Of a stretch of DNA of 64,000 bases, positions 1,086-48,417 are shown in pieces (position 1 is the first letter of the stretch; every line of letters begins with the position of its first letter). Source of the stretch: an uncultured Gammaproteobacteria bacterium (GTDB lineage Bacteria > Patescibacteriota > Patescibacteriia > Magasanikbacterales > UBA922); the NCBI GenBank assembly GCA_964344965.1, contig CAYFPJ010000002.1, positions 1,068-65,067 on the forward strand, read 5' to 3'. The notes beneath the pieces were generated by a model. The model ran no database searches, had not been told where the DNA came from, and saw only the letters and a program-made list of their open reading frames with translations. The translations under genes and the position numbers were made by a program.

Positions 1086-2102
1086 TTACTTCCCCAAAGT
1101 AGTAATCGGTCGACTTTGGGTAATATAAAATTTGTCAGCAGCAAAAGCCCACTCAATGTCACAAGGAAATCCATAATGCTTCTCAATCTTCACACACAAC
1201 TCTGCTAATTCAATAATCTGCTTTCCAGTCAATTTTTGTTCCTTTCCTTCTTCCTTCAAATCAACCCACACATTGACATTCGTGTCATTCGCGTCGCCAA
1301 CATTCGTGCTATCCTTCACCAACATTTTTTTCTGATGAGCGACATTCACATCCAATAAGGACAGTTCAGACTTCGACACAACATACGAATCCGGTGTAAT
1401 CTGACCAGACACTATCGCTTCACCAAGACCAAGCCCAGCTTCGATGATCATTTGATCATAATCTTCTGTCACCGGGTGGACGGTAAAACATATGCCAGAA
1501 ATTTCAGACTGAATCATCTGCTGGATGACCACTGCCACAGATACTTGAGCGTCGATCAGACCTTTTTCATGACGATAAAAAATTGCCCGCGGTGTGAAAA
1601 GTGAAGCCCAGCATTTTTTGACATTTTCGACCACGTTTTCTCTCGTAATATTGAGAAAAGTATCCAGCTCCCCCGCCCAACTAGCAATCTCACTGTCCTC
1701 AGCCGTGGCACTACTGCGCACCGCCACAAGTGCGTTCCCCTCTCCTTTTAGGAGAGGGGTCAGGGGTGAGGTATTATCCGAAAATAGACCATCAAACCCA
1801 TTCAAAATCTCTTCACTCAAATCCTCTGGCATTGGAGTGTCATGAATGACATCACGCAAGATATTACTAGCCTTGTCGATACTATTCATGTCATCTGGAT
1901 TTACTTCAGCTAATTGGGATTTGATTTCGATATTAATATTTGTCTCCTCGATAAATCTGTCAAAAGCATCTGCAACCACGACAAAACCAGGCGGGGCTGG
2001 GATTCCAGCGTTGGTAAGTTCGCCAAGAGAAGCTCCTTTGCCGCCGGCAGTGGATACATCATTTTTTGATATTTTAGAAAAAATTTGAATATAACCAGAC
2101 AT
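1086..2102 (-). CDS. stand-alone PEP-utilising enzyme N-terminal (PEP synthase / PPDK nucleotide-binding) domain protein
   Basis: GGKGASLGEL, LVAVRSSATAEDS and CDIEWAF motifs match the N-terminal domain of pyruvate,water dikinase-family proteins. It carries an in-frame palindromic insert (see findings). Confidence 0.7.
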   Translation of the reverse strand: MSGYIQIFSKISKNDVSTAGGKGASLGELTNAGIPAPPGFVVVADAFDRFIEETNINIEIKSQLAEVNPDDMNSIDKASNILRDVIHDTPMPEDLSEEILNGFDGLFSDNTSPLTPLLKGEGNALVAVRSSATAEDSEIASWAGELDTFLNITRENVVENVKKCWASLFTPRAIFYRHEKGLIDAQVSVAVVIQQMIQSEISGICFTVHPVTEDYDQMIIEAGLGLGEAIVSGQITPDSYVVSKSELSLLDVNVAHQKKMLVKDSTNVGDANDTNVNVWVDLKEEGKEQKLTGKQIIELAELCVKIEKHYGFPCDIEWAFAADKFYITQSRPITTLGK

Positions 2103-2108
2103 GGTAGT

Positions 2109-2957
2109 TTATTTATACTTGCCACCTTCTATTTCCCGCTGTCCCTCAAAATCCCAACTTATATCGGCTCGACGTTCATTCATTGCCTGTACATATTCTT
2201 GCCTTGCCTCTGTATAATACTTTTCACGCCACTCATTGAGCGGCAAACGATATTCAAGCAGTCCTGGAAGCTCTGCTTGTAAAATTTCTTCAACCCAGGC
2301 ATCGTCTTCTCCTGATGGTTCTTCACCCTGCCTATTCCAAAGCGGTGCCTCTCTGTCATCAACCCATCGTCCACCTTTCTTTAATTCATTCCACATATTT
2401 GTGGTACGAATAAATTCTCGTGCCGCATCTTCACCACCTACTTTTCGCATACCGAGAAGAATAGTCCTCACATATGTCTGAGAAATAGGCCATAATTCTT
2501 GCGGCTTACGCTTCATAGCAGGTGCAGCGCAGTATACATCTGCATTTTCGGGTAATGCAAATCCTTCCCCCAATATTTCCATATCCTGTGGTTTGATCTT
2601 AATATAGCCAGATCCAGCCCCTTCTCTCTTGGCGAGCTTATTCCTAATATCTTCATCTGCTTCGACAAGTACACCATTTGTCGTGGCACCCTCTTGCTCT
2701 TCTACTCCGACGTAGGTGACAAATGTAGCTCCATCACCACCCCAAGTATCTTTACCAGGAGTAGAAGGGACTCCCGGCTCTCCACCAAGAGGATAAATGC
2801 GCCAAATCCAACCTCGCTGTAATCCATGAGCACGGACATATACTTCTTCCTGGTCTCCCCAACCTTCATCAGTTGATTCTCTACTACCACTACTTGCCAA
2901 ACTACCGTAGCCAAACATGTATATTTTTCTTTCTTGAGATAAATCTTTTTCTGACAT
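2109..2957 (-). CDS. ChaC/GGCT-like gamma-glutamylcyclotransferase-family protein
   Basis: N-terminal YMFGYGSL motif characteristic of ChaC/AIG2/GGCT folds. Higher GC than its neighbours. The match is to the family only. Confidence 0.5.
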   Translation of the reverse strand: MSEKDLSQERKIYMFGYGSLASSGSRESTDEGWGDQEEVYVRAHGLQRGWIWRIYPLGGEPGVPSTPGKDTWGGDGATFVTYVGVEEQEGATTNGVLVEADEDIRNKLAKREGAGSGYIKIKPQDMEILGEGFALPENADVYCAAPAMKRKPQELWPISQTYVRTILLGMRKVGGEDAAREFIRTTNMWNELKKGGRWVDDREAPLWNRQGEEPSGEDDAWVEEILQAELPGLLEYRLPLNEWREKYYTEARQEYVQAMNERRADISWDFEGQREIEGGKYK

Positions 2958-2960
2958 AAT

Positions 2961-4151
2961 TTATTTTTTAATTACTCCCAGCATCTGAAAGCAACCATCT
3001 TGCATCAGATTGGTGATAAGATTGTGTGAGGTGCGAGCCATTCCTCCTGCATATTTTCCATTGATCATATATGGTCCGAAATCATGGTTAGTTAATTTTT
3101 TTGTAATAAGACCTTTTTTTGTGATATAAGGCTCATATGATTTTGGAATTTTGATATATTCCTGAGCAATCCAACCACCATGCTTTAATCCTTTTTTAAT
3201 TATTTTTCTCCAAGATTGATCTGATTGCTCTATACCGATAAAGACATTGGCTCCGTAAGTACCGATTGATGGTTTAATAATTAATTTCTTTCTATTGTCT
3301 CTTATATACTCAAGCAAATCCACACTGTAACCAGTCATACCTGTAGTTTTTCTCTTTTCAATAATTCGTGTCCAAGGGCACATATTGCCCAAGATTTCTC
3401 TTTCTTTTGGTGTGATGTACTCGTCAAATTGTTCGTCCGTAAAGAAAGCAAAGAAGGCCTTATGAGCTAAGGCTGCAGAGCTAAGTGGATTGAGAATACA
3501 AACAGCATTGTCATATGATGCCCGTAAGAGATCTTGATAAAGCGGTCCAACTTCATTGAGCAGATGATCCATATCAAACCAGCGTAAGACTAGATCGTAC
3601 TGCGTACCATGATAATCTAGTTTACCATCTCTATAATGAACCTGAACTGGATCACCTACCACCACATGATGTCCCATCCTCTGCAATGCTTGGCAGATCA
3701 TGTCACTGTCTTGATTGTATTGGCCTCCCCAGCGGAGCATCAATATTGGAGGATGAGTATCTTTTCCTCCCCATGCCTGGTATTGTTTCATCAGACCAGC
3801 CCTAAGTTTTTTGTACCAATGGTTGTAATAAGTGATATTATGTTTTTTCTGAAATGTATTCCAAAATGGAAATTCTTCTATTACATTACCAAGCATCTCC
3901 ACCCATCCTGGTGTTGCTGCACAATTGGTGTTCAGCTCATACACTCGCAAGCCGTCTTCTGGTGTGAGGACACTGTCAAATCTACCAAATACAACAGGAT
4001 CATAAAATCCATGATCGGTCTTCAATAGTTTTATTTCTGTTTTGGTCAGGTTGAAATATTTTTGTAAATTTTTTGATTCTTGAAACAAATCACGCAGGCG
4101 ACACAATATTTTGAAATATGTTTCTGTACGCTTTTTGACATGCGTTTCCAT
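2961..4151 (-). CDS. glutathionylspermidine-synthase-family ATP-grasp ligase (YgiC/YjfC-like)
   Basis: Shares the ELNTNCAATPGW, KPSIGTYGANVFI and GGMARTSHNLITN blocks of E. coli YgiC (LENNADTPTS, KPIFSREGANVSI, GIGIREDRALIT). Confidence 0.7.
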   Translation of the reverse strand: METHVKKRTETYFKILCRLRDLFQESKNLQKYFNLTKTEIKLLKTDHGFYDPVVFGRFDSVLTPEDGLRVYELNTNCAATPGWVEMLGNVIEEFPFWNTFQKKHNITYYNHWYKKLRAGLMKQYQAWGGKDTHPPILMLRWGGQYNQDSDMICQALQRMGHHVVVGDPVQVHYRDGKLDYHGTQYDLVLRWFDMDHLLNEVGPLYQDLLRASYDNAVCILNPLSSAALAHKAFFAFFTDEQFDEYITPKEREILGNMCPWTRIIEKRKTTGMTGYSVDLLEYIRDNRKKLIIKPSIGTYGANVFIGIEQSDQSWRKIIKKGLKHGGWIAQEYIKIPKSYEPYITKKGLITKKLTNHDFGPYMINGKYAGGMARTSHNLITNLMQDGCFQMLGVIKK

Positions 4152-4199
4152 GGCTGGGGTGATGAAGCGAGGCTTAATGCCACCAGCGATGAATCTACC

Positions 4200-4348
4200 A
4201 ATAAAAGTAAATTTGGTTTAAGTAAGACTTCATCGGGCCATCCCCGCAGCAAGCTGCGGGGTATTGGCAGAAAATCTTATTTCAACCAATGTTAGTTTTC
4301 ACTTTTTCGATGCAAGCATCGAGGAATAAAACCGCTTAAAGATTAAAA
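4200..4348 (+). repeat. 149-nt structured interspersed repeat, copy A
   Basis: Near-identical to the copies at 18577, 20057, 41992 and 47828. Begins AATAAAAGTAAATTTGG and ends CCGCTTAAAGATTAAAA. Contains the hairpins CCCCGCAG-CAAG-CTGCGGGG and CGATG-CAAG-CATCG. Confidence 0.9.
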
Positions 4349-4520
4349 TATTTATTATCCTCCTTTATTTTATAGCCATTGAAATCTAAAAAATGTGGCA
4401 AGGTTTTTTTGGTCTTTATAAATTTCTTTCTAAATTCATTTATATATTCCAAATCAACTCTGTTGACCAGGTCGAATTCTTTTGGATCAATGATGTATTT
4501 TTTTGACATATGATTACCAA

Positions 4521-5918
4521 TTATACTTTGATAACATGCTTTTCAATGAATTTATCAATCCCCAACTCTTCAAATTCTTTGATCGACTTCATAGCTGGAG
4601 ATTCTCGCCTTTCTATTCTATCATATAGGGGCTCTAGATACTCTTCTTCTCCCAAGCCTCGTTGCTCTAAACCTTCTTTGGCAATATCGACAAGTTGGGT
4701 GGCAAGTGGAATGACTTCGTCTACTAATAAACTTTTTTCAATAGTTTTGTCACGAAGATCAATCCAGTATTGCCAGTCTTTTGAAGCGACCAGTGCTTCG
4801 GCCTTTTCAATATTCTCAATAATTCCTAAAACAAGTGCTGGTGCTGACATGATGCTTGACCATGGTTGCGAGGCAATGCAACGTGTTTCAATATATAATT
4901 TAGTCAGATTACCATCCAATAATTGATCTATCGAACCGTCTTCATACGATTTTTTGAATGACTCTAGTGTGATACTTTCATCAAATTCAAATCGGGGACG
5001 AGCCATTGGCCAACCGTACTGGAGTTGATCTGAGACATCAGCAATATTTGGAATAATGGTTGCTCTCTTTGATTCAGCAACATCAAAGCTTATCCATTTT
5101 TGCTTAGAAAAATATTGACCAATATTGTCCAATTCTCTTATGACATGAACATGTTTGCCAGCATCTCTGATAATCATGAAATGAGGCAAAGACCAGTTTC
5201 TCTCTACATATTTTTGTATATTTATAATTGGCTCAGTGGGAATACCGCGCAATCTTTGATGAAATTCATCATAACCGGTTGCCACAAGATTCCATCTATG
5301 TTCACGTTCTTCATGCACATCTAGAATTTGCTCAGATTCTATTGCAGAATTTGCACATATAGATACCATAACTCCAGACAAAGCATTAACCACATTAAAC
5401 ACTTTCATGGCGTCTTCGTAGTGCACATCAATACATACCTGATGAGCGGCAATATTTGAGAAATAATGGTGATACTCGGCCCAAATTTTAGTCCAGTAAA
5501 AACCCCTATACCAAATTTTTTCTGTTTTCAATTCAGGATAATAATATGGAGTCTTTGGTTGGACGCCAAGATCTATGAGGCCAACACTTAGCCCTTTTGC
5601 AACAGAAAGAAAATCCTTTAAGATAACCGCCATGTTTTGTTCACATTCTGAAATGGTGTCAAAGGGTAAAAAACCAAACTCCACTATGTTCACTCCCGTA
5701 TCAGTATTTATAACCACCTCTCTACCATCTTTCTGGGTATACAAAACCCCCACTGGCTGTTTTGTGCCGTAATCTTTGTATAACTTGACATGACTTTCTT
5801 CAGACCATTTTCTCCAGATCGATTTGATCTGGTCGCGATTTGCAGCTTCGCCTGTAGTGACATCAATCGCAAGAAACTCATATTCAAGCGCTATCTTTCT
5901 GTTTTTCATTTTTGTCAT
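4521..5918 (-). CDS. GCS2-family carboxylate-amine ligase (glutamate-cysteine ligase family 2, YbdK-like)
   Basis: N-terminal ALEYEFLAID matches the GCS2 ...ELE.Q..D block, and there is an internal HVHV motif as in YbdK (HVHVG). Confidence 0.6.
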   Translation of the reverse strand: MTKMKNRKIALEYEFLAIDVTTGEAANRDQIKSIWRKWSEESHVKLYKDYGTKQPVGVLYTQKDGREVVINTDTGVNIVEFGFLPFDTISECEQNMAVILKDFLSVAKGLSVGLIDLGVQPKTPYYYPELKTEKIWYRGFYWTKIWAEYHHYFSNIAAHQVCIDVHYEDAMKVFNVVNALSGVMVSICANSAIESEQILDVHEEREHRWNLVATGYDEFHQRLRGIPTEPIINIQKYVERNWSLPHFMIIRDAGKHVHVIRELDNIGQYFSKQKWISFDVAESKRATIIPNIADVSDQLQYGWPMARPRFEFDESITLESFKKSYEDGSIDQLLDGNLTKLYIETRCIASQPWSSIMSAPALVLGIIENIEKAEALVASKDWQYWIDLRDKTIEKSLLVDEVIPLATQLVDIAKEGLEQRGLGEEEYLEPLYDRIERRESPAMKSIKEFEELGIDKFIEKHVIKV

Positions 5919-6135
5919 ATTTCTTTTTTAAATTACCGACCAATTTATCCCTTTTTTGATCGACTAAAAAGTATAAATTTTGTTCCATTTTCATGACATT
6001 TTTAAGATACTCAAAATCAGCAATGGGCAACATCTTGTCTTCGATTGATTTTTTTATAATCATTTTTGCGCTATCTTCAAAAATATGGGTTTCATCCAAT
6101 AAGGTAAAAAATATTTTTGTGTCTTGATATTCCAT
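5884..6135 (-). CDS. small hypothetical protein (83 aa)
   Basis: ORF only; overlaps the start of the ligase gene by 35 nt; no recognisable motif. Confidence 0.2.
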   Translation of the reverse strand: MEYQDTKIFFTLLDETHIFEDSAKMIIKKSIEDKMLPIADFEYLKNVMKMEQNLYFLVDQKRDKLVGNLKKKYDKNEKQKDSA

Positions 6136-6149
6136 ATGTGTTTTTACTG

Positions 6150-7184
6150 TTATATTTCTCTGGTTGCACCCAAACGTTTTCTTTGGCGTCTGGCAGTGAG
6201 TTCAAGTAAGTTCATCCAAATCCTGCGAGCTTCAGCTGTATTACGAAGTAAAATTTCCTTTGGATCCAACCCCTCTTGTTCCATTGCATCTCCTCTAATT
6301 ATTTTAATCACATGCAACCAATGAGCGACAATATCTGGATGATTTTGAAGAGAGACCACCAGCTCATCATCCTGATCAGCTTCTAGCACACCCTGCCCCT
6401 CACGAAGTGGATGGGCATACCCTTGATGAGGAAAATAATCATTCCAAGCCACAACTTGAATATTGTCTTTTGAAGACGGAGTGATAATTCCTTCGCTGTG
6501 ACTGGCACTCATGGGAGTAGAACCACCATCATCCCAAAATCCCTGCAATAATTGAATTTGTTTACCGAGCCCTGCTTCATCTGGATATAAATCAGGTGTT
6601 CCGAATTCCCTAGTACCTCCACCCACCTTACCAAGAGTTGCACCTTCCGAACGCTGAAACAACTGATGACCAAGACATATCGCTAATCCAGGCACTCTAG
6701 CCTGTTTTAATTTATTCATCACCTCTACAACACGTTTCAACCATGGAGTATTTTCGGTCTCATTACCAGGGTCTAGTTCTGACGGCATATATGCTCCTCC
6801 GGTCGTTACCCAGACATCAGGATATGGTAGAGAAGATAGATCTATTTCTTGATTACGAAAAGCTTCCCAAATTTTTACCCTATCATCACCTTTTTCAAAA
6901 CCCATGAAATCCCTAATGGCACTACCATATGTGGTACGATCACTACCAGCAAATTGAAATTCCTTTGCTCTTCTGCTCAATTCCTCATCTCCACCTTTTC
7001 TTGGATCTTGAACTCCTCCTAGATCCATCACAAAGATGTGAGCATCACGTGCTAGCTGATCTGCTACAAATCTTCTTGCTTCTTCTCGATGTCTTTCGAT
7101 TGTTTCAATTTCTGCTGCAAGCTCTGTTTTTTGTTTTTCCCAAAATTCTGAGCTATACCCTTCTGGTTTTTTTATCTCTACCAT
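6150..7184 (-). CDS. class-I glutamine amidotransferase-like / peptidase C26 (gamma-glutamyl hydrolase-type) protein
   Basis: Nucleophile-elbow motif PGLAICLGHQL and a downstream LQNHPD motif (cf. FHPE) of GATase1/C26 enzymes such as PuuD. Confidence 0.6.
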   Translation of the reverse strand: MVEIKKPEGYSSEFWEKQKTELAAEIETIERHREEARRFVADQLARDAHIFVMDLGGVQDPRKGGDEELSRRAKEFQFAGSDRTTYGSAIRDFMGFEKGDDRVKIWEAFRNQEIDLSSLPYPDVWVTTGGAYMPSELDPGNETENTPWLKRVVEVMNKLKQARVPGLAICLGHQLFQRSEGATLGKVGGGTREFGTPDLYPDEAGLGKQIQLLQGFWDDGGSTPMSASHSEGIITPSSKDNIQVVAWNDYFPHQGYAHPLREGQGVLEADQDDELVVSLQNHPDIVAHWLHVIKIIRGDAMEQEGLDPKEILLRNTAEARRIWMNLLELTARRQRKRLGATREI

Positions 7185-7195
7185 ATATCTTTAAA

Positions 7196-7999
7196 TTATT
7201 TCAAATATTCCCTCCACACTCTCCCCAACCCCCCAATCAAATCCTCCGCATTATAAAAAGTTCCTTTTTCATTTGCCAACTTCTCCCCTGTCAAACCAAC
7301 CAGATGAGAGCCTGCCAAAGTAGAATCAAGCAAATCATTGGTAGTAGAGAGGGCTGCAATAGTGCTGGAAAAGACATCACCAGTCCCTCCCTTCGTCATC
7401 CCGACATGACCACTTTTATTTTCCCACAATTCTTTTCCATCACTAATATAATCATGCTTGCCAGTAAGAGCAATAATGCAATTATATTTTGCAGCCATTT
7501 TCTGGACATTCTCGGCATTGGCTTCACAACCAAAAACATTGGCAAATTCTCTAGAGTGTGGTGTAAGGATGCAATTACTATGCAGACAATCTGGCTTGAC
7601 ATGCCAGAGAGCTGTGGCATCGATCACTATTTTTTTATTTGGATACTTATGTAGGATATCGTGAACTAGTGCAATAGTCTCGGAAGTTTCCGGCAATCCA
7701 GGACCAATCAGAATACTATCAACTATCTCGACAGTCTTGAATAATTCTTTTTTTGACACTCCGATAAATGTTGATATTTCACTTCGCAATTTTTTTATCA
7801 GCTTCAAATTTTCTCTTGTAGAATGAACATAGACCATGTCGACAATCCGCGAAGCAGTCTGTACAGATAGCAGAAGAGCCCCATGAAATTTATCAGAGCC
7901 AGCAATTACAAGAAGTCGGCCATTTTGACCTTTATGACTGTCTGGATTAGCTTGTTGTAATCTAGAAAAAATTGATTTGTCTATAGCCTGCATACACAC
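7196..7999 (-). CDS. nnrD: ADP-dependent NAD(P)H-hydrate dehydratase (YjeF C-terminal domain family); the likely true start is the ATG at 7993
   Basis: SHKGQNGRLLVIAGS... and ...GGTGDVFSS motifs of the carbohydrate-kinase-like NnrD domain. Confidence 0.8.
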   Translation of the reverse strand: MCMQAIDKSIFSRLQQANPDSHKGQNGRLLVIAGSDKFHGALLLSVQTASRIVDMVYVHSTRENLKLIKKLRSEISTFIGVSKKELFKTVEIVDSILIGPGLPETSETIALVHDILHKYPNKKIVIDATALWHVKPDCLHSNCILTPHSREFANVFGCEANAENVQKMAAKYNCIIALTGKHDYISDGKELWENKSGHVGMTKGGTGDVFSSTIAALSTTNDLLDSTLAGSHLVGLTGEKLANEKGTFYNAEDLIGGLGRVWREYLK

Positions 8000-8208: not shown

Positions 8209-10164
8209 TCAATTATCAAACCTGACAATCTGATCCTGATCAATTTTCTTAGGCTTGTCCTCACTATCTGCTTTATTCTCTTTTTTAGATCCATTCCCAC
8301 CGCCAGAACCATCTTTGGCAGATCCACCGTTTTTCTTTTTCCTCTTTCTTTTCCTCTTTCGTTTCTTCTTAGGCTTGTCTTCCTTTAATTTTTCTTTCAC
8401 TTCTTCCTTACTTGAGTTTTTGTCTTCGTTATCTTTTATTTCTTCATCCTTTTCTTTTCTTGGCAAAGGTGAAAAGTCTTCTGAATCTTTTAGTTCTTTT
8501 TGCTCTTCATCAAAAAAATCAAGTAGATCCTGATCTTCTTCATCATTAGCTTTTTCTTCATCACTTCCAACCTCATCTTCTTGACCATCTTCTTCATCAA
8601 AAACTTCTGGCAAAGCCTCTCCATCTTTATCTTCGGGAAAATCAAACTTATCATCTGTCGCCAAGTCGTCTTCTTTAGCTTTTTCATTTTTAGGTAACAG
8701 ATCTTCAAGAGAGATATCTTCTTTATCAGATTCTAATTTCTTCTTATCAATCTCTATTTTTTCTTTGTCATCATCTTTTTTATTATCAGTATTTTTTTCT
8801 TTCTTTTTTTCTTTTTCTACTTCTCCACTATCACTACCAGCGATCTCCATCCCACTCCACCTAGTGATCTTCTCTTCGATGATATCACGCGATTTACCAT
8901 ATCTTTCCCGAGATACTCGGATCACTTTGTTAGCGCTCCCAGTAGACGAGCCAAGTGGTGGCATGCCAACCGCGCTGAACGGCTGGGAAGCAACTCCATT
9001 GATCATCAGTTTTAGAAAGATTTGATATTTTGGCAGATTAACAATATGCTCTTCGGTAAAAGTCGGAGCATATTCTTTTGCTAGAGCCTCCGCATCAGCT
9101 GCTCCCACTCGAAAAGTAAGAATACTTCCCACATTGCCAAATACAGCATCAGCTACAGTCTCATCTAGCTGAGCCACGTATTGGTGAGCCATGATCAGAC
9201 CAAGGCGATACTTACGAGCTTCAGACAAAATATTGGCAAAAGACTGAGTAGCAAAATTCTGAAATTCATCTACATAAAGAAAAAAATCATTACGCTCTTC
9301 CTCAGGAATATCTACTCTACTCATAGCGGCCAGTTGGATCTCGGTAATAAGCATTCCCCCGAGAAGACGACTATTGTCCTCCCCAATTCTACCTTTGGAA
9401 AGATTCATGATGAGGATCTTCTTCTGATCCATGATCTCTCGTATATTAATCGTTGATTTCACTTGAGCCACCATATTCCTGATCACACTGGCAGAAAGAA
9501 ACTGACCAATCTTGTTCTGAATTGGAGCGACCGCTTCTTTTTGGTACCTGGGTTCGTAGTTGGCAAATTCTGTAGTCCAAAATGATTTGACGACAGGGTC
9601 TTTCAATTGACGAATAACTTTTCGTCGATATTTCTTATCAGCAAGCATTCTGTTGATCCCAAGTAGTGTAGAGCCTTGAGAATCAAGTAGAGCAAGGAGT
9701 GTATTATTGAGAATGTATTCCATCCTCGCACTCCAGACATCTGGCCAAATCTTCTTGAAGACTCCCATCAGTCCAGAAGCAACAAGATGCTTTTGTTCTT
9801 CAGATTCTACTTCTAGAATATTGAAGCCAATTGGGAACTCTACATCAGCTGGATTGAAGTAAATAACATCATTGGTACGATGAGAAGGAATATAGTCGAT
9901 CAGCTTCTCAGCCATGTCTCCATGAGGATCTACCACTCCGACACCATGACCATTATATATGTCTTGGAGAACCATGTTCTCGAGCATAGTCGTCTTACCC
10001 ATCCCAGTCTTCCCTATCACATACATGTGTCTTCTGCGATCATCTGTCTTGATGCCAAACTTGCGCATCTGATTACGATAATTAGTCTGCGCAAAAAAAC
10101 AGACATGTTGTTTGTCTTCTGTAGATTTTTCTTGTCCCTTTATTTGGAGGTGGTGAGTGGGCAT
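8209..10164 (-). CDS. TraD/VirD4-like P-loop ATPase (T4SS coupling-protein-type AAA-binding domain) with ~230-aa K/E/D-rich low-complexity C-terminal tail
   Basis: Walker A YVIGKTGMGKTT and Walker B FFLYVDEFQNF; overall resembles the TrwB/TraD ATP-binding domain. The tail is poly-charged (KKKRKRKRKRKKK and D/E runs). No other T4SS genes are nearby. Confidence 0.5.
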   Translation of the reverse strand: MPTHHLQIKGQEKSTEDKQHVCFFAQTNYRNQMRKFGIKTDDRRRHMYVIGKTGMGKTTMLENMVLQDIYNGHGVGVVDPHGDMAEKLIDYIPSHRTNDVIYFNPADVEFPIGFNILEVESEEQKHLVASGLMGVFKKIWPDVWSARMEYILNNTLLALLDSQGSTLLGINRMLADKKYRRKVIRQLKDPVVKSFWTTEFANYEPRYQKEAVAPIQNKIGQFLSASVIRNMVAQVKSTINIREIMDQKKILIMNLSKGRIGEDNSRLLGGMLITEIQLAAMSRVDIPEEERNDFFLYVDEFQNFATQSFANILSEARKYRLGLIMAHQYVAQLDETVADAVFGNVGSILTFRVGAADAEALAKEYAPTFTEEHIVNLPKYQIFLKLMINGVASQPFSAVGMPPLGSSTGSANKVIRVSRERYGKSRDIIEEKITRWSGMEIAGSDSGEVEKEKKKEKNTDNKKDDDKEKIEIDKKKLESDKEDISLEDLLPKNEKAKEDDLATDDKFDFPEDKDGEALPEVFDEEDGQEDEVGSDEEKANDEEDQDLLDFFDEEQKELKDSEDFSPLPRKEKDEEIKDNEDKNSSKEEVKEKLKEDKPKKKRKRKRKRKKKNGGSAKDGSGGGNGSKKENKADSEDKPKKIDQDQIVRFDN

Positions 10165-16752: not shown

Positions 16753-17752
16753 TGTTATATGGCTTGTATTTATCTATTTTTATCCTCATCATCCTGTCAA
16801 TTTCATCATCCAGAGAAGAAGAATAATGTCTTCCATTCATTTTGTTATTACGATTGAGAAGCCACTTCATAGAGGAAGTTTCTCCATCGTCCGTTAGCGG
16901 GCTTTCCTGGTGTGCTTTTTGGGCAAATCTCTTTGCCCAGGTGCGTAAAGTCATAAACGGAATTTCCTTATTATATTCTGTTTTAGCGATTTTATGATAT
17001 TTTTTGGCAATATCTTGCTCACTGCGCCATTCCGCAGATGCCACTTCCTTTCCCATAGCAAGTATAATTATTTCTTTTGTCAATCTTGGACCACAATACC
17101 ATGCCATGCCTCTATTTTTATTACAATAGTACCTACCATACTCTTCAGAGAGAATACTATCTCTTTCTATTATTTCCTTTATCAATGAATGTATTGCCTG
17201 TTTATCATGAACTACTGATTTTTCTAATGGTTTCAAAAATCTAGAAATACCTACCAATAATCTAAATCCTTCTGGAGGTGAATCCTTATACTTCTCCATC
17301 TTATGTCCGACATCTTTAGGTAAATTTGCAAATACTTCTGCAAAGTCAGACCCATCATAAATGTCACCTGCCATTCTTTTAGATTGTCGTTCCAACAATT
17401 TTTTTATTGCAATAGCGTCTTTTTCACCAAACCAATCAACAAACAAACCAAAAAATCGTGGCCTCAAAATACCATCAGCAGTACACACTCTTGGATAAGA
17501 TTTCAAAATTTCTGCAAATTCAGGAACGCTAGACTGTCCAATTTCCGGATCGTTTTCAACAATCCTATCTACTAAACTAAAAATTTCAAAATCGGTCCTA
17601 ATTCCCTCCTCATTTAGACCCATGCCCTCCTCAACCTTATCTATATCAAAACCATCCAATCTTTTTTTATCTTCGTGTAGCGCATATACCGCACCCCTGT
17701 AAATATTTTCTGCTTCTGTGGCCATAAAATATTTTTTTAAAAATCTAAGCAA
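16724..17752 (-). CDS. hypothetical protein
   Basis: 342-aa ORF with no recognisable motif; overlaps queH by 29 nt. Confidence 0.35.
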   Translation of the reverse strand: MLRFLKKYFMATEAENIYRGAVYALHEDKKRLDGFDIDKVEEGMGLNEEGIRTDFEIFSLVDRIVENDPEIGQSSVPEFAEILKSYPRVCTADGILRPRFFGLFVDWFGEKDAIAIKKLLERQSKRMAGDIYDGSDFAEVFANLPKDVGHKMEKYKDSPPEGFRLLVGISRFLKPLEKSVVHDKQAIHSLIKEIIERDSILSEEYGRYYCNKNRGMAWYCGPRLTKEIIILAMGKEVASAEWRSEQDIAKKYHKIAKTEYNKEIPFMTLRTWAKRFAQKAHQESPLTDDGETSSMKWLLNRNNKMNGRHYSSSLDDEIDRMMRIKIDKYKPYNIGTRPKRSV

Positions 17753-17972: not shown

Positions 17973-19408
17973 TTAATAAAAATAATTTCTATCTTCTAAC
18001 TCTTCCGGCAAATAATCCTGCTCCACCTCTCCCCCAAAATCTGGATTATACTTATAATCTTTACCATATCCAATTTCCTTCATAAAGTCAGTCGGAGCAT
18101 TCCGGAGATGTAAAGGTACACCAAGATGTGAAGTATTCTTAGCATCTCTGGCCGCCCGACCATAAGCTTTGTAAAGTAAGTTTGATTTGGTCGACTTAGC
18201 ACAGTATACCACAGCCTGAGCAAGGTGGACGGTGCACTCAGGCATGCCGATCTTGTGCACTGCATCATACGCTGCGTTAGCTTGAATCATTGCTTCACTA
18301 TTGGCCATGCCGATATCTTCACAAGCGAAGCGAAGCACTCGTCTAGCCACATATAGCGGATCTGCTCCCCCTTCAAGCATCCGAGCAAGCCAATACAGCG
18401 AAGCATCTGCATCACTTCCCCGCATAGATTTATGCAAAGCTGAGATCAGATTGTAAAACTCCTCACCTTTTTTATCAAAAACTAAGTGAGTACGCTGTAA
18501 TGCTTCTTTTATATCGTCAACTGACAAGATAACGCCACCAGATTCACCCCCCCCCTATGAGGGGGAGTCGATCCCGAATAAAAGTAAATTTGGTTTAAGT
18601 AAGACTTCATCGGGCCATCCCCGCAGCAAGCTGCGGGGTATTGGCAGAAAATCTTATTTCAACCAATGTTAGTTTTCACTTTTTCGATGCAAGCATCGAG
18701 GAATAGAACCGCTTTAGATTCAATCGGGACGGAGGGGGTCTCACTGGAAGTCTTCCCAACTACGGCAAGTTCAATACCATTCAAAGCTACTCTCCCATCT
18801 TCCCCACTCAAACTTGCCAAAAATTCGATAGTCTCATTATCAATCTCGACATTATATTTCCCCAATCCTCTATCCTCATCCTCGAGAGCTTGTCTTATAA
18901 GCAGGACAATATCCTCATCACTAAGACTTTTCAAAATAAAAACTCGTGAACGTGAGAGAAGTGGACGGATGATTTCAAAAGAAGGATTTTCCGTAGTGGC
19001 TCCGATGAGTGTAACCACTCCTCTCTCAACATAAGGCAGTAATGCATCTTGCTGGGCCTTATTCCAACGATGAATCTCATCAATAAAAAGCACTGTCTTC
19101 TTATTTTCATTCTGTAACAATTCTGAAGCTTCCTTGACTGCTTTCATCAAATCTCGCTTACCGCTCTCTACTCCTGACAAAGAGACAAACTCTGAATTAG
19201 TTTGCTCAGCTATAATATTGGCGAGACTAGTCTTTCCTACCCCAGGCGGACCCCAAAAAATGATCGAAGATAATTGATCTTGCTCGACCATGCGTCTGAG
19301 TAATTTGCCTTTCCCAACAATTTCTTCTTGACCTACAAATTCATCAAAATTGCGAGGACGCATGCGGTCTGGGAGTGGTCTATTATTCTGTGGCTTTTTT
19401 TCTTTCAT
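17973..19408 (-). pseudogene. rarA: rarA/mgsA (recombination factor AAA+ ATPase) split into two ORFs (18659..19408 and 17973..18527) by an inserted copy of the 149-nt repeat
   Basis: The N-terminal ORF has the Walker A GPPGVGKTSLA and ends with repeat-encoded LDACIEKVKTNIG*. The C-terminal ORF starts at a TTG with ...FDKKGEEFYNLISALHKSMRGS..., which continues the RarA alignment with no residues missing. Confidence 0.7.
18577..18724 (+). repeat. 149-nt structured repeat, copy B (inside rarA)
   Basis: Identical over ~130 nt to the other copies, with a diverged 3' end. It is preceded by an extra C9-TATGA-G6 hairpin. Confidence 0.9.
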
Positions 19409-19418
19409 GAAAATACCT

Positions 19419-20090
19419 TTATCCTTCAGATTTATCTCTCAAATATCCTTCTATAATGGTGTCAGCTTTGGAGAGATTTATTGCTACCAAAACACGAGGA
19501 GGAGTATTGGATTCTAAATAAATCTGCTCTTCCAATGGAATTTTGTGTCCTTCACCTCCCATCAATCTCTCTTGAGCTTCCTTCAAAATTCTAGACATCG
19601 TTATATAAGTTATACCAGCGTATCTAGAACGGATATATTTAGGGCGAACAAAATTTTTATTATTAATCAAAAGACCAAGAATCGTCATCCGTGCAAGCGC
19701 ATCTTCTGCTAAATCTGGACTAAGATATACCTCTCTCCTCAATCTTTCTTTTGTATTGAACTTTTGTGTAAAATGTCTTGAACCATAATTCCGCTGATCT
19801 CCCTCGGGCTTACTTTTGTTACTTTCTTTCATTCTTGATACATTCTCTGCAATTTTCCTTTTATCTAGACCTGTTTTTCTCTGTATGGTTGTCAGAGACA
19901 AGCCATATCTTCCGTCTTCTGGGGGGTATAATCTTCCATCCTCACCTTCCACAGCTCCCAAAAAAATCAAAAATTGTTTTCGATCTTCTTGAATACGACT
20001 CTCAATCATTTCCAAAACCTTAGGACTATATTTGGCATCATATCTTCTATGAGGAAAATAAAAGTAAATTTGGTTTAAGTAAGACTTCAT
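19419..20090 (-). CDS. hypothetical protein with a possible HTH; the annotated start (MKSYLNQIYFY) is encoded by the repeat, and the true start is probably near 20009
   Basis: The first 11 codons lie inside repeat copy C. The segment LSLTTIQRKTGLDKRKIAENVSRM is HTH-like. Confidence 0.35.
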   Translation of the reverse strand: MKSYLNQIYFYFPHRRYDAKYSPKVLEMIESRIQEDRKQFLIFLGAVEGEDGRLYPPEDGRYGLSLTTIQRKTGLDKRKIAENVSRMKESNKSKPEGDQRNYGSRHFTQKFNTKERLRREVYLSPDLAEDALARMTILGLLINNKNFVRPKYIRSRYAGITYITMSRILKEAQERLMGGEGHKIPLEEQIYLESNTPPRVLVAINLSKADTIIEGYLRDKSEG

Positions 20091-20206
20091 CGGGCCATCC
20101 CCGCAGCAAGCTGCGGGGTATTGGCAGAAAATCTTATTTCAACCAATGTTAGTTTTCACTTTTTCGATGCAAGCATCGAGGAATAAAACCGCTTAAAGAT
20201 TTAAAA
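20057..20206 (+). repeat. 149-nt structured repeat, copy C (150 nt)
   Basis: Matches the other copies. It supplies the last 19 codons (TFKSLSGFIPRCLHRKSEN*) of the upstream ORF. Confidence 0.9.
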
Positions 20207-21429
20207 GTAAGATCCTCATCATTACTCACTCTCCCAACAACTTCCTCTATAAGGGTAGCATAAGGTTGGCCATACTTTAATTTAACATAATTATGCAACT
20301 TCATTTCCGTAAACCATTCATCATCTTTTTGTTTTATTTCCAAAAGTAATTCGACCACTTCTACACTATACAGCATCAAACTACGACCTCCAAGGTATGA
20401 TCCTGGTCGTTTAATCTGCTCATCTCTCATCCCCTCATCTCTAAGTCTATCCACCACACCAAGAAGAGAACTATTTATCCAATATTTAGATTTACCAACA
20501 ACAGCAGCAAGAGATCTATTCTTATCACCATCAATATCACCAATAATATACCAACCACCACCTGGACGCTCCATATTTTTAACAAGTTCAACTTCTGCAG
20601 GAACATCATTAAGTATTCTTTCGATTTCAGCCAGCCAGTCTTCCATGTTTGAAAAAGGAATTATTTCATGAGGATGTGGATATGTTTCAAATGAACGCAT
20701 AGTATACTTATCTGGAGTTTGACCTAGAAAATTCTCTATATCTTCCTCTTCAGTACCTGGATTGACAAAAACAATGTGAGTACCCTCACCGTGTAAATCA
20801 GAGACGAAAATTGACACTCCTTTGTCAGGGATAACAAACAAATCATACAAACCATCATAATCACGCACAGTTGATTCAATTTGTTTTTTTGCTCCACTTG
20901 ATAAATCTTCTTTTGATTTTGTTTTTGCACGCACAGAGACAACACCTAATCTTGTCAATAAAATATCAAGTGCTTCTTTTCTCTTATGAGTTTTCCTTTT
21001 CTTTTCCCTATCTTTCTCTCCTCCTTTACCAATTCCAAGTCTTCCTTCTCCAGTGCTAAGTAAAGGCCTGTCAATATATATTGTGTTCACGGCCCCAGTC
21101 ACAACTTCTCCCTCTGGATCAGTCAATTCTACTTCGTCAGAAGTAGAATTGAAAACTAAAGGAAATTCCTCTGCTAGACTTCTCGCCCGCTTTTCTAGGA
21201 TGCTTTCTATACTATTCATATCCTCAGGAGGAATGCCTAAGATGTCTGCAATATCACCTCTATTAAGTCCAGACTCTGTCAAAGCTTCTAATTCACTTGC
21301 AAGACATCCTCTCCAATATTCTACAGCTGAGATGGGAGCAGTCTCAAGACCAGCTTGCTTACCAGCATGTTCACGTAACTTCTTCACCATTATACGGTCA
21401 GCATGAGGTTCAAGATATTTTTTTGACAT
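20149..21429 (-). CDS. hypothetical protein, paralog of the 14019..15260 ORF; its C-terminal 19 aa are read from the repeat
   Basis: Shares the FVSDL-containing block with its paralog; no family assignment. Confidence 0.4.
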   Translation of the reverse strand: MSKKYLEPHADRIMVKKLREHAGKQAGLETAPISAVEYWRGCLASELEALTESGLNRGDIADILGIPPEDMNSIESILEKRARSLAEEFPLVFNSTSDEVELTDPEGEVVTGAVNTIYIDRPLLSTGEGRLGIGKGGEKDREKKRKTHKRKEALDILLTRLGVVSVRAKTKSKEDLSSGAKKQIESTVRDYDGLYDLFVIPDKGVSIFVSDLHGEGTHIVFVNPGTEEEDIENFLGQTPDKYTMRSFETYPHPHEIIPFSNMEDWLAEIERILNDVPAEVELVKNMERPGGGWYIIGDIDGDKNRSLAAVVGKSKYWINSSLLGVVDRLRDEGMRDEQIKRPGSYLGGRSLMLYSVEVVELLLEIKQKDDEWFTEMKLHNYVKLKYGQPYATLIEEVVGRVSNDEDLTFKSLSGFIPRCLHRKSEN

Positions 21430-41967: not shown

Positions 41968-41991
41968 CGATAGTTACAAATTACTAGTTAA

Positions 41992-42140
41992 AATAAAAGT
42001 AAATTTGGTTTAAGTAAGACTTCATCGGGCCATCCCCGCAGCAAGCTGCGGGGTATTGGCAGAAAATCTTATTTCAACCAATGTTAGTTTTCACTTTTTC
42101 GATGCAAGCATCGAGGAATAAAACCGCTTAAAGATTAAAA
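41992..42140 (+). repeat. 149-nt structured repeat, copy D
   Basis: Full-length match to the other copies; lies between convergent genes. Confidence 0.9.
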
Positions 42141-47118: not shown

Positions 47119-47259
47119 ATGACTACCGAACGTGAAGAGAAACAATGTCCAATTTGTGGAGCTCCAGAAAGAGGCTGCAATTGCATAAAAGAAATTGAAA
47201 AAAAGGCTTTGATGCAAATTTGGTCATTGGTGAAATCCCAAATCATGAAAAACTAGCCA
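47119..47259 (+). CDS. possible small zinc-ribbon-like ORF (46 aa)
   Basis: MTTEREEKQCPICGAPERGCNCIKEIEKK... Absent from the track because it is under 60 aa. Overlaps the next ORF in another frame. Confidence 0.2.
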
Positions 47260-47849
47260 CACAAATTGCTACTTTCATGGATACTGATGCCACTGAACCA
47301 AGTGAGGGTAATATCAGAGAAGGATGGACCTCTGACGCACATTTGCGCAAATTAGAAAGTGTAGTAATGCACGAAAACCACCAAAACCAGACTTTTGCTG
47401 ATATTGCAGAAAATGCTGGAGAAAGAAGTAAAAGCCCTGCTGTAAAAATTCTTCTGAAAATAGGCGGACAAATTAACGGATTGAGGCGCATGACCGATAA
47501 AGAACCGATCAAAGACGAAGTTGACAAACTAATCAGAGAGGCCGCAGAGGAAATTGATCAGCTGGAGGATGGAACTAAAAAAGAACGCCTAGACTCACTG
47601 TTGGATTATAATGCTGGTGAGTGGAATAGAGTTATGGGAAATTATGACCTGGCTGCTGAATTGAAAAAACGCTCTGCAACCAAAGCCGAGACAAGCGGGG
47701 ATAGAGTAGGTGCCTCTATCGGGTATGTCGGTGAAAGTGTTCAGAAAGTGAATGAAGCTTTGGTAAATGGTGACCAAACAGAAATAGCTGCGAATCTAGA
47801 AGAAATGATTAGTCGTTCTGATCATCTAATAAAAGTAAATTTGGTTTAA
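47220..47849 (+). CDS. hypothetical protein (TTG start in the track; the last 6 codons, IKVNLV*, come from the repeat)
   Basis: ORF with higher GC than its neighbours; no motif. Confidence 0.35.
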   Translation: MVIGEIPNHEKLATQIATFMDTDATEPSEGNIREGWTSDAHLRKLESVVMHENHQNQTFADIAENAGERSKSPAVKILLKIGGQINGLRRMTDKEPIKDEVDKLIREAAEEIDQLEDGTKKERLDSLLDYNAGEWNRVMGNYDLAAELKKRSATKAETSGDRVGASIGYVGESVQKVNEALVNGDQTEIAANLEEMISRSDHLIKVNLV

Positions 47850-47976
47850 GTAAGACTTCATCGGGCCATCCCCGCAGCAAGCTGCGGGGTATTGGCAGAA
47901 AATCTTATTTCAACCAATGTTAGTTTTCACTTTTTCGATGCAAGCATCGAGGAATAAAACCGCTTAAAGATTAAAA
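47828..47976 (+). repeat. 149-nt structured repeat, copy E
   Basis: Full-length match; separates two GC-richer ORFs. Confidence 0.9.
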
Positions 47977-48024: not shown

Positions 48025-48417
48025 ATGCCAGCCCATGTCCTGCTAGCTCATGTTTGGGCTAATGCTCCGCTAGAGGATACTGATCGTTTTGGAGACCTGC
48101 TCCGTGAATATAGCAACATAGATCCTGCAGTGGCAGAAAGTCATAAGCATGATATAACTGCCTTTGCAGCTTGTGAAGCTTGGTTGCAAAATGATACAAC
48201 AAGGGCCAAGAAGCTAGCTGAAGAAGTACTGGTAGCAGATCCAACTCCACACGAACAGAGCACCACAACTGCCAAACTAATCCTGGCAAGGGTTGTTGCT
48301 GGGGAAGGCGATACCACTAGAGCGAAAAATCTTCTAGAGGAGATATCTGCACCTGGGCACTACATGCACCAAGTACGAACTATTGCCGAGCGTGAACTGG
48401 CTGACTTGGGAAATTAA
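48025..48417 (+). CDS. hypothetical protein with an internal repeat (TTRAKKLAEE / TTRAKNLLEE)
   Basis: ORF followed by a terminator. Confidence 0.35.
   Translation: MPAHVLLAHVWANAPLEDTDRFGDLLREYSNIDPAVAESHKHDITAFAACEAWLQNDTTRAKKLAEEVLVADPTPHEQSTTTAKLILARVVAGEGDTTRAKNLLEEISAPGHYMHQVRTIAERELADLGN

Follow-up and report, generated by a model that had tools for sequence, protein, structure and literature searches.

Why would a Magasanikbacteria-like member of the Patescibacteria (candidate phyla radiation, CPR), bacteria thought to have almost no biosynthetic capacity, carry a run of genes for enzymes that make and break amide bonds? The question is raised by a 64,000-nt stretch of contig CAYFPJ010000002.1 (the window; WIN where loci are compared), in which a GCS2-superfamily carboxylate-amine ligase, an ATP-grasp ligase, a class I glutamine amidotransferase (GATase)-fold protein and a gamma-glutamyl cyclotransferase (GGCT)-fold protein are encoded together on the minus strand. 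Our answer is tentative, with a probability that we place a little short of even: with this island the cell may build and turn over a small gamma-glutamyl peptide or amide, perhaps one akin to glutathione. The nearest characterised relatives of all four enzymes make or break amide bonds of glutathione-type gamma-glutamyl compounds; put most concretely, the product would be a gamma-Glu-X(-Y) molecule resembling glutathione. All functional statements on the island are inferred. Its features are given below; L-numbers label compared loci from other genomes, and ORF stands for open reading frame.

6150-7184, minus strand: GATase-A, class I GATase-fold Cys-His protein, 344 aa (Pfam GATase)
5884-6135, minus strand: sA, helical 83-aa ORF (position-conserved homologues)
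4521-5918, minus strand: GCS2-superfamily carboxylate-amine ligase, 465 aa (Pfam GCS2)
4336-4509, minus strand: ATP-grasp N-terminal fragment, 57 aa (alignment to the intact L014 orthologue)
4200-4341, no strand assigned: repeat insertion, 142 nt, inside the ATP-grasp ORF (empty-site comparison with L014)
2961-4199, minus strand: ATP-grasp C-terminal part, with a 396-aa ORF from the ATG at 4151 (2961-4151; GSP_synth/CP_ATPgrasp_2)
2109-2957, minus strand: GGCT-fold protein, 282 aa; additional helical domain at the C-terminus (relatives, profile and AlphaFold2 (AF2) model)

Superfamilies and catalytic residues of the island enzymes

The GCS2 ligase scores 22.9 against Pfam GCS2 (cut-off 21), a marginal and partial match covering residues 76-191. 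A profile built from 19 family sequences matched, among solved structures, only plant-type glutamate-cysteine ligase (GCL; 6gmo/2gwc) with an E-value of 1e-26, and aligned with both halves of that enzyme in stretches 5-259 and 335-449. The N-terminal metal-binding motif IGxExE is kept (IGLEYEF aligned with IGTEHEK of plant GCL), and E12, E14 and E80 are invariant in the 19 sequences. Homologues fall into ~30 clusters, and every named one belongs to the Patescibacteria (Magasanikbacteria, Kerfeldbacteria). These comparisons make the enzyme a distant and new offshoot of the GCL-like ligases, one that belongs to the superfamily but stands outside the GCL equivalog. Public gene calls start it three codons later, at 5909, giving 462 aa. 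Two or three tandem GCS2 paralogues occur in L017 (4906-9518) and L012 (10007-12983), each preceded by its own 59-63-aa helical ORF with the common motif F-P-(E/D)-(Y/F)-F.

GATase-A matches Pfam GATase (PF00117) at 26.0 bits against 22.8 and has an N-terminal helical extension. The motif CLGHQ (C170, G172, H173, Q174) and H282 are invariant in eight GATase homologues from three subfamilies; the catalytic acid is D284 in the window protein (HPD) and Glu in the other homologues. The best solved relative of the GATase profile was Arabidopsis gamma-glutamyl peptidase 1 (GGP1, 9k7i; 2.8e-9), a C26 member, followed narrowly by the stand-alone GATases 3l7n and 3m3p and then by the glutaminase subunits GuaA and CarA; PuuD was only a marginal match (E 0.51). 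The window protein has no match to Pfam Peptidase_C26, and among the variants only that of L008 has one (1.2e-4). In GGP1 a Cys, His, Glu triad (C100, H192, E194) is accompanied by Q104 of CxGHQ, which binds the gamma-Glu moiety (PMC12958103); by hydrolysis, the enzyme takes gamma-Glu off glutathione and its conjugates, working alongside GGCTs (PMC12958103, PMC9804317). From its fold and CxGHQ motif, the substrate of GATase-A would be Gln or gamma-Glu-X; these features do not separate a glutaminase from a gamma-glutamyl peptidase, and the protein is a candidate for either.

The small protein sA, overlooked in the preliminary description, lies between these two genes, and its stop codon overlaps the GCS2 start. 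Homologues at the same position in 10 lineages share 25-45% identity, with F9, L13, F19 and E51 invariant. Conservation extends over nearly the whole length; the termini are variable and differ in every lineage, and the tail is hydrophilic. No match to sA was found in Pfam, NCBIfam or the PDB, including by a profile search against the PDB. We propose that sA is a partner of the GATase/GCS2 pair, possibly as a subunit, adaptor or scaffold.

The 282-aa protein had been called ChaC/GGCT-like, which is correct at the level of fold. It has no Pfam or NCBIfam match of its own at E<=0.01, the nearest being GGACT at E 0.063 (14.3 bits against 22.8). An exhaustive HMMER search found 211 remote relatives of ~200 aa that share the motifs FGYGSL and D-x-R-E and the C-terminal helical domain; FGYGSL stands at 15-20, and the second motif, also written (K/D)-R-E, holds the invariant E112. 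Among 31 relatives, Pfam GGACT was matched by 21 and ChaC by 12. The family profile detected AIG2-like 2jqv (7e-6) and yeast ChaC 5hwi (0.009). An AF2 model, with a predicted local distance difference test score (pLDDT) of 84.9, matched human GGCT (E 3e-7, template modelling (TM) score 0.65), and the other top folds were ChaC2, YkqA and yeast ChaC. With the modelled fold, the substrate-binding YGSL motif and the catalytic Glu all present, the predicted structure places this protein in the GGCT fold.

The C-terminal part of the window ATP-grasp enzyme scores 29.0 against GSP_synth, just under the cut-off of 29.3, and matches CP_ATPgrasp_2 weakly. The intact L014 orthologue passes the same cut-off (32.4), and CP_ATPgrasp_2 is matched by 13 of the 16 family members. 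By its profile matches the enzyme is a circularly permuted ATP-grasp protein of the GspS/glutathione-synthetase clade, a placement at clade level that leaves the choice between the GspS and GSS subfamilies aside. In the profile confirmation that the preliminary description had called for, the GATase, GCS2 and NAD(P)HX dehydratase genes pass, the ATP-grasp gene falls just below its cut-off and the GGCT gene has no hit of its own. All four family calls hold at the level of superfamily or fold, and each enzyme is a very divergent, Patescibacteria-restricted member of its superfamily.

Such relatives could also indicate ordinary, if divergent, glutathione biosynthesis and degradation by gshA, gshB and ChaC, as the nearest matches are GCL, glutathione synthetase/GspS, GGP1 and ChaC/GGCT. 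We consider this scarcely probable. The GCS2 ligase scores 24.5 against 463 bits for the plant-type GCL equivalog TIGR01436, a clear failure, and the glutathione synthetase subfamily model gives 19.8 against 408. Neither the eukaryotic nor the prokaryotic Pfam glutathione-synthetase model passes for the window ATP-grasp enzyme. The family is confined to a few Patescibacteria, gsh operons offer no counterpart to the obligatory GATase and small protein, and the second ligase is disrupted in the window.

Recurrence of the gene set and its proposed function

We compared 27 loci, obtained by homologue look-ups and collection scans, and classed their ORFs by all-against-all BLAST. The preliminary grouping of the four enzymes was to fall if they were syntenic in no related genome, and on this point it stands. 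In L014, from a different species, the genes for a TraD homologue, the NAD(P)HX dehydratase (CarbK), GATase-A, sA, GCS2, ATP-grasp and GGCT follow in the same order as in the window, without the repeat and with 70-82% amino-acid identity (GCS2 70%, ATP-grasp 82%, GGCT 79%). In L017 (~50% identity) all four classes lie in one cluster, ordered ATP-grasp, GATase-B, sB, a GGACT gene on the opposite strand, then GATase-A, sA, GCS2, s63, GCS2b, s59 and GCS2c. This GGACT belongs firmly to its family (4.9e-16), yet no sequence relation between it and the window GGCT-fold protein could be detected; a cyclotransferase was therefore recruited on two occasions. The trio GATase-A/sA/GCS2 is adjacent in 10 of 14 lineages (WIN, L014, L021, L022, L006, L012/L024, L023, L025, L017 and L027), with gaps of 1-20 nt or overlaps. 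In L008/L020 a different GATase directly precedes GCS2, which is followed by a PGM1-like ATP-grasp gene, and there is no small ORF. The four-enzyme set that had been described as a unit thus co-occurs in L014 and L017, but the conserved core is the trio of GATase, ~80-aa protein and GCS2, and the ATP-grasp and GGCT genes form an accessory pair.

The partners of this accessory ATP-grasp gene alternate. Directly behind the orthologous gene lies GGCT in WIN and L014, and GATase-B with sB in L017 and L018, which suggests that GGCT-fold and GATase-fold genes are interchangeable Glu-removing partners of the ATP-grasp enzyme. A cyclotransferase cannot supply ammonia, and the alternation therefore favours a Glu-removing partner over an ammonia donor. 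Ligation and removal of gamma-glutamyl groups is the reading best supported, because it is backed by the nearest relatives, the double recruitment of a GGCT, the alternation of partners and the translational coupling of the trio. The GCS2-like ligase would join a carboxylate, most likely the gamma-carboxyl of Glu since its nearest relative is the plant-type Glu-Cys ligase, to an amine at the expense of ATP, yielding gamma-Glu-X. An intact ATP-grasp enzyme would extend or cap the free carboxylate of gamma-Glu-X with a second amine. GATase-A, a Cys-His enzyme resembling GGP1, would hydrolyse off the gamma-glutamyl group, the GGCT-fold enzyme would take off the same group by cyclisation to 5-oxoproline, and the four steps together would turn over the compound or its conjugates. 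The folds and superfamilies, the catalytic residues, the conserved trio, the recurrence of the four classes and the split of the ATP-grasp gene are observed; Glu as the acyl donor is inferred, and so are what X is, which way the flux runs and whether a complex forms. The substrates offered in the preliminary description, a thiol, a polyamine or a peptide, are conjectural. The ATP-grasp step has probably been lost in this genome, because the 142-nt repeat interrupts its gene. The earlier proposal of a self-contained cycle of two ligations and two removals draws some support from the alternation of partners, but the cycle is probably incomplete here.

The pairing of ligases with GATases also fits a Gln-dependent amidotransferase, in which the GATase hydrolyses Gln and channels the ammonia to the ligase, an activated carboxylate is amidated and the ~80-aa protein is a bridging subunit; precedents for such subunits are PurQ/PurS/PurL, CarA/CarB, GatD/MurT and GatCAB. 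Each ligase type has its own GATase paralogue and small protein, tightly and often translationally coupled (GATase-A/sA/GCS2 in 10 lineages, ATP-grasp/GATase-B/sB in L017 and L018). The catalytic Cys-His and the Gln-binding CxGHQ are intact, GuaA and CarA are only slightly weaker PDB matches than GGP1, and the end-to-end conservation of sA with variable termini resembles that of a structural subunit. However, in WIN and L014 a GGCT-fold protein, with which no ammonia is possible, replaces the GATase and small ORF of the ATP-grasp enzyme, and a GGACT lies within the L017 cluster. Furthermore, GCS2 occurs without a GATase in three lineages, the small ORF is missing from L008/L020, and the best GATase relatives (GGP1, 3l7n, 3m3p, PRK09065/PRK07053) are stand-alone enzymes rather than synthase subunits. 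We regard an amidotransferase as the strongest rival reading, though an unlikely one.

The small helical proteins could themselves be substrates or carriers, a cognate ~60-80-aa protein being loaded with an amino acid or amine by each ligase and the product released or trimmed by the GATase or GGCT. Ligases of small proteins are known, namely PafA for Pup (GS/GCS2 fold) and LysX for LysW (ATP-grasp). A small ORF lies by every ligase paralogue: sA precedes GCS2, and ORFs of 61-63 aa and 59 aa precede GCS2b and GCS2c in L012, L024 and L017. In addition, sA has the invariant Glu E51 and its variable hydrophilic tail. Against this, sA has no conserved C-terminal Glu, Gln or Gly-Gly, its termini differing by lineage, and the small-ORF families (sA, sB, s30) have no significant mutual homology (hhalign E 0.007-0.06). 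L008/L020 lack the small ORF, sB comes after the GATase rather than the ligase, and no protease or other tailoring enzyme is present. These points make a carrier role very unlikely. A broader version, to which we likewise assign a low probability, is an assembly independent of nonribosomal peptide synthetases in Patescibacteria, in which each ligase would work on its own ~60-80-aa helical carrier or scaffold in the manner of LysW/pearlin, but with amidoligases, and the GATase and GGCT folds would release a gamma-glutamyl product such as a CPR-specific thiol.

A further possibility is that the genes share no pathway and are unrelated accessory genes piled up in a recombination-prone slot. The usual slot of the island is bounded by TraD and CarbK upstream and by PPDK_N or F4, Band7, MnmA and AlaRS downstream. 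Its content varies widely: L009 has a 627-aa protein rich in Cys, L004 has giant proteins and L008 the PGM1-like ATP-grasp. The cluster also has a mobile repeat and a DUF559 endonuclease gene within it or at its side. However, the same four amide-bond classes recur in differing orders from non-homologous families (two GGCT-fold families, three GATase subfamilies and two ATP-grasp types among the clusters), which makes chance adjacency unlikely, and in L006, L012 and L024 the trio stands elsewhere, behind an M23 peptidase gene. We give the absence of a common pathway little credence.

Several points weigh against the gamma-glutamyl reading. All similarities are remote, with ~10-20% identity to characterised enzymes, and the failure of the GCS2 ligase at the GCL equivalog counts here too. 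GCS2 stands without a GATase in L004, L009 and L011, and ATP-grasp stands alone in L019. Because the island occupies a variable region between conserved backbone genes, the adjacency may be partly positional. If a translationally coupled trio both made and broke one bond, its work would seem pointless, save where the hydrolase has a derivative as its substrate. The cluster was seen to contain no 5-oxoprolinase, transporter or thiol-dependent enzyme, and with a broken ATP-grasp gene the four-enzyme scheme cannot run here as drawn.

The multicopy repeat and the interrupted ATP-grasp gene

A copy of a repeat had been described within the operon, and it does lie there (~4196-4348), not between the GCS2 and ATP-grasp genes but within the ATP-grasp coding sequence. 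The intact orthologue (L014:8591-9997) has 468 aa. The 57-aa ORF of the window aligns to its residues 1-56 with 64% identity, and residues 55-468 align, in another frame, to window positions 4205-2964 with 82% identity and no internal stop. L014 thus provides the empty site: 142 nt, at 4200-4341, are inserted after codon 56, causing a frameshift and immediate stop codons, and are flanked by TTTTAAT and TTTTATT. The invariant residues K65, P66 and F68 are encoded at 4199-4152, 5' of the first ATG, GTG or TTG of the 396-aa ORF, and in a model of the ATP-grasp orthologue P0040 residues 1-66 belong to the fold and are well ordered. No single uninterrupted ORF with all invariant residues is therefore present in the window. 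The split ORF, the position of the invariant residues upstream of the start and the ordered N-terminus together suggest that the window ATP-grasp gene is most likely a recent pseudogene, or at best encodes a two-piece enzyme without the conserved residues. Publicly available contigs of this organism, obtained in three runs, break off at the repeat in every case, so independent assemblies have the insertion. We also considered the 57-aa ORF as a precursor peptide and rejected this, as the alignment to L014 identifies it as the ATP-grasp N-terminus.

The repeat has five copies in the window with 91-98% identity. Its predicted RNA fold is strongly structured (z = -4.6), with an internal inverted repeat of 28 nt (79%; 4203-4230 and 4272-4299) around a GC hairpin and with a second hairpin. 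No Rfam match was found, and the repeat is absent from all other loci examined save contigs of the same organism. Near-identical non-coding copies and the empty site in the L014 ATP-grasp gene are features of a MITE-like element (miniature inverted-repeat transposable element). Clear terminal inverted repeats are lacking; the flanking 7-mers TTTTAAT/TTTTATT are imperfect, occur at four of five copies, and may be element ends or a preferred target. The hairpins at 4242-4261 and 4307-4322, found in all copies, close on GCAAGC (plus strand) or GCUUGC (minus strand), and their loops read as GNRA-type or CUUG-type tetraloops depending on the strand. Such tetraloop-like hairpins suggest selection at the RNA level.

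Other copies also affect genes. The copy at 18570-18725 splits a RarA/MgsA-type AAA+ ATPase gene into ORFs 18659-19408 and 17973-18527; the N-part, of 249 aa, has residues encoded by the element at its end, MgsA_C lies in the C-part of 184 aa, and Pfam AAA_assoc_2 is divided between them (model positions 2-40 and 48-81). The flanks of this copy (18540-18570 and 18725-18760) are G/C-rich and inverted-repeat-like, reading …GAGGGGGAGTCGATCCCG / element / CGGGACGGAGGGGGTC…, which suggests either that the copy is nested in another palindromic element or that its target is structured. At the copy at 20050-20205 (ORFs 20149-21429 and 19419-20090), both the end of the upstream ORF and the start of the downstream one (MKSYLNQIYFY...) are element-encoded, so the element brings with it an internal ATG as well as stop codons in every frame. 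The copy at 47821-47976, in the opposite orientation (ORFs 47220-47849 and 48025-48417), terminates a 209-aa ORF, and that at 41985-42140 is intergenic between convergent genes. The ORFs flanking the copies at 20050, 47821 and 41985 have no Pfam match.

MITEs, Rickettsia palindromic elements and REP-like (repetitive extragenic palindromic-like) sequences resemble this repeat in being short (~142-150 nt), non-coding, structured, near-identical and multicopy, and in lying within and between genes. In contrast to them, the repeat described here is not in frame but splits genes through stops in all frames, has its inverted repeat internally rather than clear terminal inverted repeats, and carries an internal ATG able to restart a downstream ORF. 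The ATP-grasp insertion presents a mobile structured repeat that is actively breaking genes in a reduced genome.

Known systems and the genomic setting

The plant glutathione set (GSH1, GSH2, GGP1 and GGCT2/ChaC-like) corresponds one-to-one, fold by fold, to the four enzymes of the island. It differs in that the island enzymes have ~10-20% identity and miss curated equivalog thresholds, and in that the island is an operon with an obligatory ~80-aa protein, is restricted to Patescibacteria and has its ATP-grasp gene interrupted here. Iyer et al. in 2009 reportedly predicted neighbourhoods with a GS-like Amidoligase_2 (PF12224) beside a GATase-like thiol peptidase or an AIG2/GGCT cyclotransferase, and operons with circularly permuted (CP)-ATP-grasp enzymes. 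These are alike in pairing a ligase with a GATase-fold or GGCT-fold alternative, the alternation here being at the ATP-grasp gene. In the island, however, the ligase is a GCL-like GCS2 rather than Amidoligase_2, a small helical protein is added, and there is no alpha-E or transglutaminase partner; those systems are themselves predictions. Pfam gave no Amidoligase_2 match, the GCS2 and GGCT proteins matched no PHROG, and the PADLOC defence models gave nothing. The resemblance to phage amidoligase triads is in logic only.

ATP-dependent gamma-glutamylation of an amine is followed by removal in two further systems, by BtrG (GGCT fold) after BtrJ in butirosin synthesis and by PuuD (C26) after PuuA in polyamine metabolism. 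As proposed for the island, a ligase adds the gamma-glutamyl group and a GGCT-fold or class I GATase-fold enzyme removes it. In contrast, BtrJ is a different ATP-grasp enzyme with a substrate bound to acyl carrier protein, and the island has no carrier protein; PuuA is GlnA-type rather than GCS2, PuuD is only the marginal match given above, and the island contains no catabolic genes. Literature searches on GCL or glutathione in Patescibacteria/CPR returned nothing relevant, and we found no such cluster described. At the level of folds the logic is a known one; new are the families to which the proteins belong, the ~80-aa partner that is obligatory, and the setting in this taxon. We know of no low-molecular-weight thiol or gamma-glutamyl metabolite from CPR/Patescibacteria. 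A conserved, lineage-specific set of this kind would indicate that these episymbionts have a small-molecule metabolism that has gone unnoticed; it might buffer redox state, detoxify, handle nitrogen or sulfur, or act in the interaction with the host. Its core would be a compact three-gene module of GATase, 80-aa protein and GCL-like ligase, the small partner being without known counterpart.

The island is part of a longer unbroken gene run on the minus strand, from 8000 to 1086, with spacings of 3-18 nt or overlaps that are compatible with a single operon. The genes at and just beyond its ends are:

7196-7999, minus strand: NAD(P)HX dehydratase (YjeF C-terminal/Carb_kinase), 267 aa; opens the co-directional run
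1086-2102, minus strand: stand-alone PPDK_N, 338 aa (Pfam PPDK_N)
696-1067: DUF559 endonuclease-like gene (Pfam 6e-34)

The preliminary description had listed four bond-making and bond-breaking families in line on the minus strand with the NAD(P)HX dehydratase. Gene order and family matches bear out the arrangement, but the dehydratase does not belong with the enzyme set. It is a clear family member (Pfam Carb_kinase 3.1e-40; TIGR00196 172 bits, cut-off 129.85) that adjoins TraD in WIN, L014, L008, L009 and L018 whatever comes next. Because this TraD-CarbK backbone of the slot persists with or without GCS2, the dehydratase is a positional neighbour and not part of the island chemistry.

At the other end, the PPDK_N gene, which had also been overlooked, closes the operon. 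Its product (Pfam 4e-95) is the nucleotide-binding, ATP-grasp-type domain of PEP synthase/PPDK, without the PEP-utilizers or TIM domain. The gene lies directly 3' of the island in WIN, L008/L020, L004 and L018, 6 nt past the GGCT gene in the window and 1 nt past GCS2 in L004 (11402-12349), and might belong to the island as a fifth working part instead of to the backbone. In L019 (1-9909, a Parcubacteria-type contig) the orthologous ATP-grasp gene is divergent to at least eight tandem paralogues of 344-509 aa whose sole domain is PEP-utilizers (phospho-His swivel). This array and the island-terminal PPDK_N hint that the ligases are linked to split PPDK-like phosphotransfer parts. The DUF559 gene, of a Vsr-like endonuclease fold, starts 18 nt past the last operon gene and is a typical selfish or accessory gene for an island edge.

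The 209-nt gap 5' of 7999 is likely the promoter region; in a scan for consensus promoters and terminators, sites were no more frequent than in shuffled sequence. The region had been called GC-richer than its surroundings, which it is not: GC of 2109-7999 is 0.391 against 0.385 for the window, at the 65th percentile among equal-sized windows. It is raised only in the GGCT (0.445) and GATase (0.421) genes, and GC at third codon positions (GC3) is flat across the genes of the region (0.27-0.33), so the differences reflect amino-acid composition. Horizontal transfer, considered from the GC content, is ruled out as its explanation by the flat GC3.

Upstream of the operon, and next to CarbK in five lineages, lies the gene for a TraD/TrwB-type coupling-protein homologue (8209-10164). 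This protein has a highly charged, low-complexity C-terminal tail of ~220 aa, rich in Asp, Glu and Lys and ending in KKRKRKRKRKKK. L014, the nearest relative whose cluster is intact, encodes a glutaredoxin-like protein of 83 aa (16943-17194) 6 kb downstream of its island, and the active site of this protein is a classical CPYC; no homologue was found in the 64-kb window or the other loci. Three of the compared loci, L009, L010 and L011 (CAZTEU010000001.1, OZ246405.1 and CAYFPM010000001.1), are labelled 'uncultured Gammaproteobacteria'. Their genes and synteny (TraD, CarbK, GCS2, MnmA, AlaRS; 1.2-Mb chromosome) match Magasanikbacteria-type Patescibacteria, so these labels are probably wrong.

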